From the NCBI RefSeq assembly GCF_013122565.1, contig NZ_CP053258.1: 64,000 bases of DNA; one strand, given 5' to 3'. Position numbers and translations under genes: made by a program. Source of the DNA: Escherichia coli. Its GTDB lineage: Bacteria; Pseudomonadota; Gammaproteobacteria; Enterobacterales; Enterobacteriaceae. The notes below the pieces were generated by a model, which was given only the letters and a program-made list of their open reading frames with translations, ran no database searches and was not told the origin of the DNA. Numbering within the stretch: the first letter of the stretch is position 1; each line of letters begins with the position of its first letter. Below are positions 48,622 to 64,000 of the stretch, piece after piece.

Positions 48622-48748
48622 TCATACTCTAAATAATTCGAGTTGCAGGAAGGCGACAAGAGAGTGAATCCCCAGGAGCTTACATAAGTAAGTGACCGGG
48701 GTGAGCGAACGCAGACGCAGCACATGCAACTTGAAGTATGACGAGTAT
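48622..48748. repeat. ERIC (IRU) element, about 127 bp
   Basis: Contains the ERIC core GTGAATCCCCAGGAGCTTACATAAGTAAGTGACCGGGGTGAGCG; a near-identical copy lies in inverted orientation at 63477..63605. Confidence 0.7.
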
Positions 48749-59207: not shown

Positions 59208-60101
59208 TTAATCCTGACGAAGGACTTTGTGACCATAATCGAGTAACGCATCAGTGACTTTACGCATCATGCGGCTTTCAGGAGCAAAGCGGTGCCAGTA
59301 GAGCATCCGTCGTTGAAATAGCCCAGGCGTTAAGTCAATCAGTTCGCCGCTGGCCAGCTCTTTCTCTATTTGCAGGTGCGGAATCATACAGCAGGTGGTG
59401 CCCTGGCGAGCAAGTTGCACGAACGCTTCTGAAGAATTAACGATATGGCAGGGTACGCTGCCAGGAGGCAGATCGAAGTTTTGCTGCAAAAAGGCCTGGT
59501 GCATATCGTCAAGATGGTCAAACGCGACCACTGGCGCTTTTAATAATGCCGAACGCGTTACGCCGTTAGGGAAATATTTTTCGGCAAACGGTTTTGAGCT
59601 GACGAACAGATAGTCGAGCGCACCAAGTTTATCGACAAGACAACTCGGCAGCGCCTGATGTTGAATACTCACCGCGCCGACCACTTCGCCGCGACGCAGA
59701 CGTTCCTGAGTGCGGGTTTCATCTTCTACCTGCAAGTTGAGGCGGATAGGCGAGTCAGCCAACACAGGAGCCAGTGCCGGAAGCAACCACGTCGCCAGAC
59801 TGTCGGCGTTGACCGCCAGTGAAAGCAGCAGCGGAGTCGAACCGGTTTGTTCATCACCCAGCCACTCTTCTTCCAGCAACTCCACCTGGCGCAGCAGTGC
59901 CAGCAGTTTTTGCCCTTGTTCCGTCGGGCGCGGCGGTACGGTACGCACCAACAGCGGCTGCCCGAACATATTTTCCAGTTGCTTAATGCGCTGTGAGACG
60001 GCTGATTGTGTAATGCACAGCTTTTGTGCCGCGCGCTCAAATCCTCGTTCACGTATCACCGCATCCAGTGCCTGTAATGTTCTGTAGTCCGGGCGTTTCA
60101 T
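59208..60101 (-). CDS. argP: LysR-family regulator ArgP (IciA)
   Basis: 297-aa [43 protein letters not shown]... Confidence 0.9.
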
Positions 60102-60170
60102 TGCTGTTGTCTGCTCCTGGTAAATGCTTTTTCCGCACTATGACACAATTTTGCGTTGGGTACAGAGCAT

Positions 60171-61496
60171 TTAACGCATACAAAAGCGGTCGTAATGGAA
60201 GTTTTGGCTGGCAATCCCATTTTCATATAACCCTTTGCTGAGCGCTTTGGCAAAACTCTGTGGGCCGCAAAACCAGAAATGGGTGTCACCTTTATTTGCT
60301 ATTTTATCAGCAAGATAGTGCGACTGTAGGCGCTCACCTTTATGCGCATCAAGCAGATGCAGTGTGACACTGGCCAGGGCACAAAGTGAGGTAAGTTTAT
60401 CAACATACCATGCATCCTCGCTTCGGCTGACGCAATACCAGAGATCCACAGGAACACGGGACGCGCCATGCTGGTTCAGATACTCAAGCTGGGCGATAAA
60501 GGGGGTAATGCCGATGCCTCCAGCTATCCATACCTGGCGGGAGCAAGGGAGAGTAAAATCAAACTTTCCCCATGGCCCTTCAACGATGGCGGACTGGCCG
60601 ATTTTTATCGAGGATGCAAGGGTAGAGGTATAATCCCCTAAATTTTTGATGGCAAAGCGCAACGTGTTCTTCTCTATTGCATATGAAGCGATAGTAAAAG
60701 GGTGAGATTCTTTACTGTGTGCGAACGTTAAGAATGCAAACTGACCCGGAGAATAGTCGATGGCATGTTCCAGCTCCAGTATGACTTCGGTAATTTGTCC
60801 CGGATGGTTAACAATACTTTTAATGGTGGCCTGATGCTTGTTTTTATTACCGTTTAATTTCAGCAGCGAAATGAAAGCCGCAAAGACGCCTGGGATGGTA
60901 ATTAAAATTAATAAATACGCCGCAGGAGTTTCCCACCAATATGATTTAAACAAAGCAGTAAACACATGAAAGGCAATTGCCAGATAAAAAACAGGGAACA
61001 AACGGTGAACAAGATGAAATAAATGATAGGGAACCTTTTTGCTTAGAGACACGAAAACCATCGCTATCATAATAAACATTGCACATTCACCCGCTAACAG
61101 TCCCGCATGAAGCCAATTTTCTTGTACTGGCGTCAGGTTAATATCAACGATTTTACCAGGGTGAGTAAGCCAGCAAAAGGCGACGAATAACTGGGGTAAT
61201 TTTTCATCCAGCCAGTGGGTGAAAGCAAAAGCTATGGCGCATATTCCTGCCCACTTATGTAATCGCCACGCTTTATCCAGACCGCCCAGCACTTTGTTAA
61301 ACCATGATGAACGCAGCGATAAACACATCGTCAGCGTCATCAGACACCACGCAAGGGTTCCCGTAAAAAAGAGTATGTTTTGTCGAAGGAACCATATTAG
61401 CGCGATTGGCTTTTCACGAAAAATATCACCGGACGACAAAAAAATAAGGCATGTGACAAAGCAAACCAATGTACCTGTAAGATTAGCTTTTTTCAT
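60171..61496 (-). CDS. NOX/FRE-family membrane flavocytochrome-like protein: ferric-reductase TM domain plus FAD- and NAD-binding domains (accessory)
   Basis: 441-aa ORF with N-terminal TM helices carrying spaced histidines (HKWAGICAIAFAFTHW ... HLFHLVH ... HVF), then HPFTIAS (FAD-binding-type) and GGIGITPF (NAD(P)-binding-type) motifs. Distinctly AT-rich by eye. Confidence 0.55.
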   Translation of the reverse strand: MKKANLTGTLVCFVTCLIFLSSGDIFREKPIALIWFLRQNILFFTGTLAWCLMTLTMCLSLRSSWFNKVLGGLDKAWRLHKWAGICAIAFAFTHWLDEKLPQLFVAFCWLTHPGKIVDINLTPVQENWLHAGLLAGECAMFIMIAMVFVSLSKKVPYHLFHLVHRLFPVFYLAIAFHVFTALFKSYWWETPAAYLLILITIPGVFAAFISLLKLNGNKNKHQATIKSIVNHPGQITEVILELEHAIDYSPGQFAFLTFAHSKESHPFTIASYAIEKNTLRFAIKNLGDYTSTLASSIKIGQSAIVEGPWGKFDFTLPCSRQVWIAGGIGITPFIAQLEYLNQHGASRVPVDLWYCVSRSEDAWYVDKLTSLCALASVTLHLLDAHKGERLQSHYLADKIANKGDTHFWFCGPQSFAKALSKGLYENGIASQNFHYDRFCMR

Positions 61497-61557
61497 TTTT
61501 TATTTCATTTTGGCAGAGGAGCATAGAATAGTTCCATGCTCCCGTTAAACAGGGTGA

Positions 61558-61818
61558 TTATTTATAGAAAATTACAGTGGCGTGGATATAATTTTTACCG
61601 GAGAAAGAACTGATGTAGTAATTACTGGCTTGCAATTCTTCCGCTTTCTCTTTGATTTGACTTTCAACGCCCGCTGGATTGCTATTGTGTGTGGAAATAC
61701 TCACTTTTGATATCTGTTCAAGATTATTGTCCGGTTTTTGTATCTCGGTTGCTGCAAATACGTGTCCTGTGAGAGTGCAAAGAAATAACGCGGCAAATAA
61801 ATTTTGCTTAATAGACAT
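61558..61818 (-). CDS. Small secreted YhcN/BhsA-family (DUF1471) protein
   Basis: 86-aa ORF with a signal peptide (LFAALFLCTLTGHVFA) and a C-terminus ending ...ATVIFYK, typical of BhsA/YdgH-like proteins. Confidence 0.5.
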   Translation of the reverse strand: MSIKQNLFAALFLCTLTGHVFAATEIQKPDNNLEQISKVSISTHNSNPAGVESQIKEKAEELQASNYYISSFSGKNYIHATVIFYK

Positions 61819-61834
61819 AATAACTCCTTTTATA

Positions 61835-62464
61835 TTAAAGAAAATGATTAAATACTTGTGTAATAAGATCAGGGATTTGCGCTAATGCATTTTGCTCGGC
61901 GAGTTCGCGTCCCGGTTGGGTTTTGTCGACGCCTTCCGCACGTAAAATATGTGTATTGGTAATGCCCATTAATTTCAGCGTGGCTTGCAGGTAACTTTCC
62001 TGATGATCCAGCGCCAGATGTGCTTTATCGCAATAGATACCGCCGCGCGTCGAGACAATAAACGTCGGTTTATCCGTCAGTAACCCAACGGCACCAGCGG
62101 AAGTAAAACGAAACGTTAAACCAGCCTGACAGACCTGATCTATCCAGGTTTTGAGGCCAGATGAAACGCTGTGATTAATCATCGGCGCGCCAATAATGAG
62201 CACATCGCACGATGCCAGTTCTTCAATAGCGGCGTGAATCCCATTCACCTCCTGCTGAATTTGTGCGTTCTCGCACTCCGCTTTACCGCAAAGCGCCAGA
62301 AAGGTTTCTTCACGCAAATGGGGCGGCGGCGTCAGGCCGACGTCGCGATGAATAATTGTGGCTTGCGGAAAGTGTTGGCAAAGCGCTTCTACCAGCGCCT
62401 GGCTTAATTTCCGCGAACTTGAATGCTTAAGCATTGGGCTGCTGTCGATATGGAGAATTTTCAT
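61835..62464 (-). CDS. FMN-dependent NADH-azoreductase-like flavoprotein (AzoR family)
   Basis: 209-aa ORF; MKILHIDSSP and the overall layout resemble AzoR/ACP-phosphodiesterase-family flavodoxin-like proteins. Confidence 0.6.
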   Translation of the reverse strand: MKILHIDSSPMLKHSSSRKLSQALVEALCQHFPQATIIHRDVGLTPPPHLREETFLALCGKAECENAQIQQEVNGIHAAIEELASCDVLIIGAPMINHSVSSGLKTWIDQVCQAGLTFRFTSAGAVGLLTDKPTFIVSTRGGIYCDKAHLALDHQESYLQATLKLMGITNTHILRAEGVDKTQPGRELAEQNALAQIPDLITQVFNHFL

Positions 62465-62564
62465 GGGCTTGCTCTCGTTTCTGCGATGAGAGAAGTTTAA
62501 CTGTTGTTGATATGGTGATTAAATAGACATAATTGAACTTCATTGTTGTGAAAATAGAACAATC

Positions 62565-63461
62565 ATGATCGACTGGAATGATTACTACTACTTTGCCCTG
62601 ATTGCCGATGAAGGCAGCTACAGCCAGGCGGCGCTGCGTGCGGGCGTGTCGAAATCGGTATTAAGCCGACGAATGGCTGCGCTGGAGGAGCGCCTTGGCG
62701 TACGGCTTATTCAGCGAACTACGCGGCGTCTGGCCCTGACGGCGGAAGGCGAACAGTTTGCCGTCGAATGTCGGGCGCTGGTGGCGCAGGGGGAACGGGC
62801 CAGAGCGGTGGTGATGGCCGCCCAGGAAAGCCCACAGGGAATGCTGCGCGTCAGCGCACCGGTATTTATGGCTGAAACATGGTTTGGTGAGTTTGTCAGT
62901 GAGTTTATCGCCCGCTGGCCCCTGGCGAAGGTGCAACTGCTGGCAATTAATCGCCCGGTGGATATGGTCGCTGAAGGCATTGATATTGCGCTGGTTACGG
63001 CTTCCGGCGCGCTTGCGGACTCGACGCTGCATTATAAAAAATTACATACCCAGGCCGATATTTTAGTTGCCAGTTCGCAGTGGCTGGCCCGCCATCCGCA
63101 GGTGAAGGTCATTGACGATCTTAACCGCGTTGACGGGATCCTCCGCCTGACGAACAATGGCGGGAGCCAGTGGCAGTTAATTAATGGCGAACAGGAGATT
63201 ACGCTGCAACCCGAGGCTCGTTTGCAGACGAATAACATTCGCGTCATGTTGCAGGCAGTGCTTGGTGGGAATGGCGTGGCGTTATTGCCTCAATTTGCCT
63301 GTAAACAGGGGCTTGCGAACGGTGAATTGGTGCGCCTGTTTGCACCGTGGAGCGGCATACCCAGACCGTTGTATGCTTTATTTGCGGGGCGAAAGGGGAT
63401 GCCCGCCATTGCGCGATATTTTATGGATGAGTTATCTGTACGGCTTGCCAACGGGGTCTGA
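62565..63461 (+). CDS. LysR-family transcriptional regulator, divergent from the AzoR-like gene
   Basis: 298-aa ORF with an N-terminal HTH (YSQAALRAGVSKSVLSRRMAALE). I recall K-12 carrying only a LysR pseudogene fragment (yqfE) at this position. Confidence 0.65.
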   Translation: MIDWNDYYYFALIADEGSYSQAALRAGVSKSVLSRRMAALEERLGVRLIQRTTRRLALTAEGEQFAVECRALVAQGERARAVVMAAQESPQGMLRVSAPVFMAETWFGEFVSEFIARWPLAKVQLLAINRPVDMVAEGIDIALVTASGALADSTLHYKKLHTQADILVASSQWLARHPQVKVIDDLNRVDGILRLTNNGGSQWQLINGEQEITLQPEARLQTNNIRVMLQAVLGGNGVALLPQFACKQGLANGELVRLFAPWSGIPRPLYALFAGRKGMPAIARYFMDELSVRLANGV

Positions 63462-63476
63462 CTCGCTTTTTTTGTA

Positions 63477-63605
63477 TATACTCGTCATACTTCAAGTAGC
63501 ATGTGCTGCGTCTGCGTTCGCTCACCCCAGTCACTTACTTCTGTAAGCTCCTGGGGATTCACTCTCTTGTCGCCTTCCTGCAACTCGAATTATTTAGAGT
63601 ATAAT
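63477..63605. repeat. ERIC (IRU) element, inverted relative to the copy at 48622..48748
   Basis: Its reverse complement matches 48622..48748 almost base for base, including the GTGAATCCCCAGGAGCTTACA core. Confidence 0.7.
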
Positions 63606-63639
63606 GCGTCTGAAATTTCATACCACAGGCGAAACGATC

Positions 63640-64000
63640 ATGACGCAGGATGAATTGAAAAAAGCAGTAGGATGGGCGGCACTTCAATATGTTCAGCCCG
63701 GCACCATTGTTGGCGTAGGTACAGGTTCTACCGCCGCACACTTTATTGACGCGCTCGGCACGATGAAAGGCCAGATTGAAGGGGCGGTTTCCAGTTCGGA
63801 CGCTTCCACTGAAAAACTGAAAAGCCTCGGCATTCACGTTTTTGATCTCAATGAAGTAGACAGCCTTGGCATCTACGTCGACGGCGCAGATGAAATCAAT
63901 GGTCACATGCAGATGATCAAAGGCGGCGGCGCGGCGCTGACCCGTGAAAAAATCATTGCTTCGGTTGCAGAAAAATTTATCTGTATTGCAGACGCTTCCA
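63640..64000 (+). CDS. rpiA: Ribose-5-phosphate isomerase A (5' part; 3' end outside the window)
   Basis: Translation from the ATG at 63640 gives [40 protein letters not shown]... and runs to the window edge; not in the ORF track because it has no stop in the window. Confidence 0.85.

Follow-up and report, generated by a model that had tools for sequence, protein, structure and literature searches.

The closest described counterpart of the protein at the centre of this work is SpNOX, the NADPH oxidase of Streptococcus pneumoniae, a bacterial member of the NOX family that reduces O2 in vitro (PMC5676040, PMC11564096). Studies of SpNOX leave open both the physiological role of bacterial NOX and what it reduces in the cell, describe an exposed outer haem and suspect that another protein accepts the electrons (PMC11564096; bioRxiv 10.1101/2023.10.16.562591); O2 may not be the physiological acceptor of these homologs (PMC11564096). 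In the survey of Hajjar et al. (2017, PMC5676040), bacterial NOX proteins were recognized by three to seven predicted transmembrane helices followed by a C-terminal FNR-type dehydrogenase domain, by a bis-histidyl pattern (H-x12/14-H occurring twice, at least 20 residues apart, in transmembrane helices), and by motifs for flavin adenine dinucleotide (FAD), H[PSA]F[TS][LIMV], and for NAD(P)H binding. A protein called EcNOX (UniProt L2VL28, from Escherichia coli KTE10) was selected, cloned and then dropped in that survey, the haem signals of SpNOX and then of PaNOX being stronger. Among prokaryotic proteins with a ferric reductase domain (FRD), MsrQ is the only one with a known role (bioRxiv 10.1101/2023.10.16.562591), and together with Fre it makes a two-component NOX-like chain that feeds MsrP (bioRxiv 10.1101/2023.10.16.562591, PMC5676040). 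Here we describe a four-gene module at positions 60171-63461 of a 64,000-nucleotide stretch of E. coli DNA (the window), in which a gene for a LysR-type transcriptional regulator (LTTR) is divergent from a tightly spaced three-gene unit, a putative operon, for an AzoR-like flavoprotein, a small DUF1471 protein and a NOX-like flavocytochrome.

The module is intact, is generically annotated in more than 200 complete genomes, and is otherwise unstudied; a search of the literature on yqfE, the RefSeq and UniProt accessions, EcNOX and the genomic context of bacterial NOX found nothing on the locus beyond PMC5676040. The locus is an ancestral, decaying accessory module of Escherichia and not a recent gain, and the K-12 state is the derived one. 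As to function, we propose with moderate confidence a reductive defence, inducible and powered by NAD(P)H, that would act against redox-active quinones or oxidants on either face of the inner membrane. A bacterial NOX is now placed in a compact, conserved, LysR-associated E. coli operon together with quinone-reductase-like and DUF1471 proteins, a genomic context that offers a tractable clue to the physiology of the family. The step is an incremental one, since the family is known, the genes carry generic annotations and an E. coli member had already been picked in 2017.

The NOX-like protein and its relatives

An exact-sequence look-up identifies the 441-residue protein as RefSeq WP_171460396.1 (QJU27081.1), “ferredoxin reductase family protein [Escherichia coli]”. 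In Pfam it matches Ferric_reduct at residues 45-174 (6e-14), FAD_binding_8 at 226-297 (1e-7) and NAD_binding_1 at 324-420 (1.5e-6), as well as FAD_binding_6. Motifs and hydropathy place in it six transmembrane helices and two bis-histidyl haem sites, H80/H164 and H94/H177. The spacings along the chain are H80-x13-H94 and H164-x12-H177, and both pairs fall in helices (73-106 and 157-184) of the structural model. The best sequence match in the PDB is SpNOX (8qq7, E=1e-25), and the four histidines align with its H69, H83, H129 and H142, the residues mutated in PMC5676040. The FAD motif reads HPFTI (265-269) and the NAD(P)H motif GIGITP (327-332). Across 35 homologs of 32-90% identity, the four histidines, R62, H265-P266, G327-I328-G329-P332, C410-G411-P412 and F438 are all invariant.

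An AlphaFold2 model built from the alignment of these 35 homologs (predicted local distance difference test 89.4, predicted template modelling score 0.86) has six long N-terminal helices joined by short extracytoplasmic loops, followed by a two-lobed dehydrogenase domain made of a beta-barrel and a Rossmann-like domain. When the model is compared with the PDB by Foldseek, full-length SpNOX comes first (E=3e-26, template modelling scores 0.76/0.83), then human NOX5, DUOX1 and NOX2. The protein is thus a full three-domain NOX-like protein with every published sequence hallmark of a bacterial NOX. The initial annotation, made from the DNA letters and a list of open reading frames (ORFs), had read the locus in this way; its four-gene content, its gene identities, the intact LysR gene divergent from three minus-strand genes across a 100-bp spacer, the three domains and both haem sites are all confirmed.

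The resemblance to SpNOX extends to the six helices, the H-x13-H and H-x12-H ligands, HPFTI, GIGITP and the C-terminal aromatic residue (F438). The two proteins differ in that they are only about 22% identical, in that ours has 41 more residues, its N-terminus and the loop between helices 3 and 4 both being extended, and in that its gene sits last in a LysR-divergent operon with AzoR-like and DUF1471 genes and is known here from sequence. Eukaryotic NOX enzymes have a conserved Arg/His O2-reaction centre near the outer haem; in our protein the residue four after H94, read by eye, is Glu and not His. The likeness to SpNOX would suit a true superoxide-generating NADPH oxidase, which would release reactive oxygen species (ROS) into the periplasm or beyond for signalling or competition, while the AzoR-like and DUF1471 proteins protect the producer. 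All of the bacterial NOX filters, the SpNOX fold of the predicted model and the reduction of O2 by SpNOX in vitro speak for this reading, and the cost of ROS would fit the repeated inactivation of the gene that is described below. However, the authors of the SpNOX work themselves allow that O2 may not be the physiological acceptor (PMC11564096), and the operon has no gene reminiscent of superoxide or peroxide detoxification; we consider the production of superoxide unlikely.

The protein can also be compared with MsrQ (YedZ) and Fre. Each is built around a di-haem membrane protein with a ferric reductase domain that takes electrons from cytoplasm to periplasm, in a stress-linked role that for our protein is a prediction. 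It differs from MsrPQ in that the donor domain belongs to the same chain, in that no gene for a molybdoenzyme partner lies nearby and in that the regulator is LysR-type, whereas msrPQ is under the control of a two-component system that responds to hypochlorous acid. In effect, the NOX-like protein unites in one chain a domain like MsrQ and an FNR domain like that of Fre (for the concept see PMC5676040 and bioRxiv 10.1101/2023.10.16.562591).

The only other NOX-like family that we found in E. coli is plasmid-borne (P0071/P0163, 435 residues, 38% identical), and its motif reads HPYTI. Since HPYTI falls outside the published FAD filter, EcNOX is most probably an allele of the window NOX-like gene, an attribution reached indirectly, by elimination of the plasmid family. 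On three E. coli plasmid contigs the paralog is a solo gene beside Tn3/IS91 transposases and a major facilitator superfamily (MFS) transporter, with DUF305 and beta-propeller genes nearby in one case. A homolog in Dyadobacter sp. 3J3 (about 38% identity) directly adjoins a PMSR gene (msrA-type methionine sulfoxide reductase), an adjacency that echoes the link between MsrQ and MsrP.

Partner proteins and control region

The 209-residue product of the first gene of the operon matches Flavodoxin_2 of Pfam (4e-41) over model positions 1-189 of 198, and so shares with AzoR the full-length fold. Its best PDB matches are 4c0w (“FMN-dependent NADH-azoreductase 1”, 1e-30), with which its N-terminal phosphate loop DSSP...SSSR aligns, and the 1v4b group (“NADH-azoreductase, FMN-dependent”, 2e-22), which we take to be the AzoR enzymes of Pseudomonas putida and E. 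coli, respectively. It differs from AzoR in its flavin/substrate loop, which reads PMINH in place of the canonical PMYNF, and it scores 75.5 bits against the NCBIfam azoreductase subfamily (NF010075), where the cut-off is 188. On these sequence comparisons we class it as a member of the wider Flavodoxin_2/AzoR-like superfamily and not as an AzoR equivalog. In an alignment of its clade, the subclade to which it belongs is marked by the loop GAPM[I/F/Y]NHS and a conserved WIDQVCQAG motif, and in the copies examined its gene always adjoins an orthologous LysR gene. Azoreductases are NAD(P)H quinone oxidoreductases (PMC4051601).

The second gene, which has a strong AAGGAG ribosome-binding site ahead of it, encodes an 86-residue protein with a match to PF07338 (YdgH_BhsA-like) at 5e-10. 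Its hydrophobic N-terminus reads by eye as a Sec-type signal peptide, with a putative cleavage between MSIKQNLFAALFLCTLTGHVFA and ATE at a VFA/A site. It resembles BhsA/YcfR in its PF07338 domain, its signal peptide and a C-terminal HATVIFYK-type motif, but it scores 53.7 bits in the NCBIfam BhsA model against a cut-off of 90 and appears to be a separate, fast-evolving paralog tied to the module and not a BhsA equivalog. The RclB model matches it weakly (E=1e-6). RclB is the periplasmic DUF1471 protein of the reactive-chlorine operon of E. coli, rclABC, which also encodes the flavoprotein RclA and the membrane protein RclC and has a divergent regulator, rclR. The likeness of our module to rclABC/rclR is one of layout only, each combining a divergent regulator with a reductase flavoprotein of the cytoplasm, a periplasmic protein of the DUF1471 family and a protein integral to the membrane: the regulator is LysR-type here and AraC-type there, the flavoprotein has the Flavodoxin_2 fold where RclA has that of the pyridine-nucleotide-disulfide reductases, and the membrane protein, unlike RclC, is a haem flavocytochrome.

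A predicted periplasmic protein is encoded directly upstream of the NOX-like gene in two module variants, and this is among the reasons to consider that the NOX-like protein is a membrane electron donor, as MsrQ is, for a specific periplasmic protein, be it DUF1471 from the operon itself or a reductase encoded elsewhere, for example MsrP. The precedent of MsrQ and Fre, the short extracytoplasmic loops of the model and the Dyadobacter homolog beside a PMSR gene point the same way. Yet the DUF1471 protein is without redox-active residues or a cofactor motif, is absent from a three-gene variant of the module, and is the least conserved of the four proteins (37% identity in a diverged Salmonella copy), and we find donation to a protein partner very unlikely. 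A further proposal, that the operon is dedicated to electron export to the envelope, with the NOX-like protein serving a specific periplasmic partner or substrate (DUF1471, a quinone or an oxidized envelope component), we hold to be decidedly doubtful. If true, a bacterial NOX would for the first time have a physiological acceptor and role assigned to it, and a DUF1471 protein a biochemical function, in a host that is genetically tractable and in which knock-out alleles occur naturally.

The 298-residue regulator is an ordinary full-length LTTR with HTH_1 (2e-19) and LysR_substrate (3e-32) domains in Pfam. Its best NCBIfam matches are PRK14997 and YafC; all are below their cut-offs and no equivalog is assigned. 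Its two domains, the divergent operon across the 100-bp spacer and a dyad upstream are what is expected of the LysR family. The dyad, ATTGTT-N10-AACAAT (22 bp), stops a single base short of the LysR ATG; its centre lies about 88 nt upstream of the AzoR-like ATG. The classic position of an LTTR recognition site is about -65, and the dyad centre would be near it only on the assumption of an mRNA leader of about 25 nt. In six module copies the arms of the dyad are invariant and the spacer is variable, and the dyad is still recognizable beside the LysR gene of the orthologous LysR/AzoR-like pairs of Hafnia (ATTGT...CAACAAT) and Rahnella (ATTGTTGC-N6-GCAACGAT). Module variants that share it have proteins only 40-70% identical, and the 100-bp control region keeps 78% identity between copies with NOX-like proteins at only 51%. 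The dyad is its most conserved element; the second conserved block is CTATTTAAtCAtCAT...AACnnTTAaAC, and the site of activation, along with a weak promoter, is probably to be sought there (CTATTTAAtCAtCAT...TTAaAC). That the module is LysR-controlled, as the initial annotation had it, we still only infer, now with a conserved putative operator behind the claim.

No Fur box was found in the control region, the best match (7/19 mismatches) being at background level. This bears on the possibility that the NOX-like protein reduces ferric or cupric ions in the service of metal acquisition or homeostasis, a role implied by the RefSeq name “iron reductase”. The Ferric_reduct domain and the several database entries with that name favour such a role, and so does the DUF305 gene near the E. 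coli plasmid paralog, DUF305 being presumably a copper-associated family. Against it stand the background-level Fur match, a regulator that is LysR-type, and a module with no transporter or siderophore gene. We judge metal reduction to be improbable, and rank the readings with reductive defence first, then superoxide production, then metal reduction, then MsrQ-like donation to a protein partner.

A stable hairpin with a 12-bp stem and no following U-run lies in the 61 nt that separate the DUF1471 gene from the NOX-like gene; its minimum free energy is -17.4 kcal/mol (z = -4.8 relative to shuffled sequences). A hairpin is also present in the corresponding spacer of the copies from Salmonella and E. 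whittamii; the diverged copy of Salmonella has one of unrelated sequence at the equivalent place, and its spacer folds at -21 kcal/mol. The hairpin may be an intra-operon attenuator or an mRNA stabilizer.

Conservation, decay and history of the module

Outside the argP-rpiA interval the module exists in several forms. A diverged Salmonella copy, on an island among integrase, TraI and Fic remnants, has the same four genes in the same order and spacing, with proteins that are 51% (NOX-like), 70% (LysR), 72% (AzoR-like) and 37% (DUF1471) identical to those of the window. A third variant, in another chromosomal context (L022 and L032), has a LysR gene divergent from AzoR-like and NOX-like genes without DUF1471, and in Hafnia alvei and Rahnella only the LysR/AzoR-like pair is present (AzoR-like 57% and 48%, LysR 40% and 43% identical, respectively). 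Pair-only, three-gene and four-gene variants together point to stepwise assembly, in which LysR and AzoR-like genes were joined by the NOX-like and then the DUF1471 gene; this is supported only on a much deeper time scale than that of the window strain. A wider conservation of the module was considered and rejected, because five NOX-like homologs at about 35-43% identity (from Pantoea, Dyadobacter, Entomohabitans and Enterobacter, and the E. coli plasmid paralog) have unrelated neighbours and no AzoR-like, DUF1471 or LysR gene beside them; the module is therefore confined to close relatives, and there the four genes would, on the evidence of gene order, form one functional unit.

The distribution within E. 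coli is narrow, as the initial annotation had supposed: 232 of 5,426 complete genomes (4.3%) carry at least 80% of the locus, at 96-97% identity, and nearly all of the others keep only some 350-390 bp of remnants. In the K-12-type chromosome the argP-rpiA interval has a single ORF, the 231-nt “LysR substrate-binding” yqfE, which corresponds to the last ~190 nt of the window LysR gene, and here too the initial annotation was right that K-12 has only a LysR remnant as an ORF and that the locus is not identical to that of K-12. As DNA the K-12 remnants are three, namely 53 bp adjoining argP, ~54-62 bp of the AzoR-like 3′ part, and 212 bp of the LysR 3′ end (yqfE). Since three separate pieces of the module are left, at least two deletions led from the complete module to what K-12 has now, and the origin of the K-12 pseudogene yqfE is explained. 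The 53-bp remnant beside argP is followed in K-12 by ~68 nt of unmatched sequence.

A scan of the other Escherichia species, one genome each, found the module at the same argP-rpiA site in three more lineages, MOD1-EC7003, E. whittamii and E1V33, each with a different internal deletion of the NOX-like gene (Table 1) and each with the AzoR-like gene intact. Synonymous divergence (dS) within E. coli is mostly 0.06-0.16 for the module genes (higher for the short DUF1471 gene) and 0.06-0.14 for argP, a pattern that would fit vertical residence of the module. Some Salmonella enterica (L003/L004) also carry it between rpiA and argP, 91-95% identical to the window, while the flanks are 84.6% (argP) and 88% (rpiA) identical. 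Between E. coli and this syntenic copy, dS is 0.18-0.37 for the four module genes and 1.24 for argP; a dS so far below that of argP points to a move of this copy between the genera after their split, presumably by recombination through the conserved flanks. Among intact alleles omega is 0.03-0.29 for all four genes, the NOX-like gene being the most relaxed, and the four genes are under purifying selection.

The G+C content falls from the LysR gene (56.7%) through the AzoR-like (48.9%) and NOX-like (44.4%) genes to DUF1471 (36.8%), in a window of 51.2%. The initial annotation took the AT-richness of the last two for a sign of separate acquisition, which would make the locus an islet recently gained by the window strain. 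The low values are real, and the module is indeed mobile on long time scales, as seen in the diverged Salmonella copy among its integrase, TraI and Fic remnants and in the syntenic copy, 91-95% identical between core genes that are only 85-88% identical. Yet every diverged copy shows the same gradient, LysR > AzoR-like > NOX-like > DUF1471, even the one in a host of 55.5% G+C, so that it is a property of the genes and not a sign of recent separate acquisition. A recent, separate gain is further contradicted by module remnants at the argP-rpiA site of nearly all E. coli genomes and the deletions that they record in K-12, by the same site in three other Escherichia lineages, by a within-E. coli dS that equals that of argP, and by the absence from the window of mobility genes or direct repeats flanking the module. 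We regard a recent islet as highly improbable.

Among carriers, decay falls mostly on the NOX-like gene. A C5 to C4 frameshift within the codons of the NADPH motif (GITPF; window ~60501-60505, gene nt 988-992) is common to VCSW7, A16, ET350, 23CRST027 and ES5, in two allele groups, and ES5 has a second NOX-like frameshift, T6 to T5. The C5 frameshift could have been passed between strains by recombination as one shared mutation, could have recurred through slippage, or could be an error in sequencing the homopolymer. SCU-313 has an IS1 within the gene (from annotation only), and the gene is split in 15 of the 60 best-matching genomes, by annotation pattern, of which five were checked. Lesions in the other three genes are fewer, among them an IS5 at the AzoR-like 3′ end in SCU-482 and, in MOD1-EC7003, a LysR frameshift with a truncated DUF1471 gene. 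The module is fully intact in the window copy, SCU-172, EC09, Santai, PCN033 and DETEC-C31. At least seven lesions touch the NOX-like gene; because that gene makes up 43% of the coding length, because the five C5 cases are not independent and because some may be homopolymer errors, the excess is only suggestive of a preferential target of inactivation. The natural intact, frameshifted, IS-disrupted and deleted alleles provide ready isogenic-like material, with which hypotheses on the inducer, the regulon and the acceptor can be tested.

Perhaps, then, the module is a silent relic without current function in the window strain, given that most lineages have lost or broken it, that the NOX-like gene is often frameshifted at the C5 tract, and that AT-rich genes are often silenced in E. 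coli. We think this most improbable, as the four ORFs are intact, omega among intact alleles is low, and the control region with its putative operator is conserved.

Proposed function and surroundings of the locus

In the reductive defence that we prefer, the LysR regulator would sense an effector and bind the ATTGTT-N10-AACAAT dyad, the position of which would fit both autoregulation and effector-dependent activation of an otherwise weak operon promoter. In the cytoplasm, the AzoR-like enzyme would use NAD(P)H to reduce electrophiles of the quinone or azo type. The NOX-like protein would pass hydride from cytoplasmic NAD(P)H to FAD, and single electrons would travel on from there through two haems in turn, the inner one (H80/H164) and the outer one (H94/H177), until an acceptor on the periplasmic face takes them up. 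In the periplasm, DUF1471 would serve as a stress-protective or partner protein. The NOX-like gene is probably expressed less than the two genes upstream of it, on account of the hairpin that precedes it. LysR and AzoR-like would be the ancestral core, with the NOX-like and DUF1471 proteins as later add-ons.

Several observations weigh against this proposal. The NOX-like protein has an NAD(P)H domain of its own and so requires no biochemical link to the AzoR-like enzyme; its five distant homologs keep other company; and its gene is the part of the module most often broken, and may be dispensable or costly. The mature DUF1471 protein, of about 64 residues, has no Cys or Met, and neither its sequence nor its alignment shows a cofactor motif. 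In the 100-bp control region a consensus scan finds no sigma-70 promoter, as is usual for activator-dependent promoters, and the even spacer of the dyad (10 nt) leaves no in-register T-N11-A box. The initial annotation had pointed to this region as the place for such a box; T-N11-A pairs can be read there only one base out of register.

Table 1. Features of the module in window coordinates, and deletions of the NOX-like gene in other Escherichia
Feature	Position	Strand	Basis
NOX-like flavocytochrome b, 441 aa	60171..61496	-	ORF list, Pfam, motifs, model
RNA hairpin, candidate attenuator or stabilizer	61517..61543	-	folding energy vs shuffles
DUF1471 (YdgH/BhsA/McbA-like) small protein, 86 aa	61558..61818	-	Pfam PF07338
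AzoR-like flavin mononucleotide (FMN)-dependent NAD(P)H:quinone/azo reductase, 209 aa, operon's first gene	61835..62464	-	Pfam Flavodoxin_2
Divergent control region, 100 bp, between AzoR-like and LysR start codons	62465..62564	.	conservation
Interrupted dyad ATTGTT-N10-AACAAT, putative LysR operator	62542..62563	.	inverted repeat, conservation
LysR-type transcriptional regulator, 298 aa, intact	62565..63461	+	Pfam HTH_1 + LysR_substrate
NOX-like deletion, Escherichia sp. MOD1-EC7003	60664-61698		
NOX-like deletion, E. whittamii	60519-61283		
NOX-like deletion, Escherichia sp. E1V33	60684-60961		

To the left of the module lie argP (59208-60101; NCBIfam ArgP, 418 bits) and scpA, and to the right rpiA, which starts at 63641. 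The window is E. coli, because the scpA-argP flank is 98.8% identical to the K-12-type chromosome. The gaps within the three-gene minus-strand unit are 16 and 61 nt, and a consensus scan predicts no intrinsic terminator anywhere in 60050-63700. PADLOC models matched none of the four proteins, and a role in anti-phage defence was rejected. Only 69 nt (60102-60170) separate the NOX-like stop codon from the start of argP on the same strand, again with no predicted terminator, and therefore the argP promoter must overlap the 3′ end of the NOX-like gene; transcription that starts in the module could run on into argP. The window NOX-like protein falls in a 90%-identity cluster that also lists many ArgP proteins of other genera, which looks like a clustering artefact, possibly of fused ORF calls across the NOX-argP gap, and its member count (2,612) is unusable as a frequency.

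In Rfam, the only matches to structured RNAs were a sub-threshold one over a repeat in the right flank and one at chance level. The repeat, an enterobacterial repetitive intergenic consensus/intergenic repeat unit (ERIC/IRU), lies between the LysR stop codon and rpiA at 63481-63604 (core 63519-63562), where both classical ERIC primer sequences are matched with 0-1 mismatch, and a second copy is found near 48664-48707. It explains the sub-threshold Rfam match (V_AS5) and the multi-copy tail of the BLAST matches. It is absent in K-12 and in many module carriers, in which the spacer is 56 nt as against ~178 nt, and present in SCU-172-type genomes.

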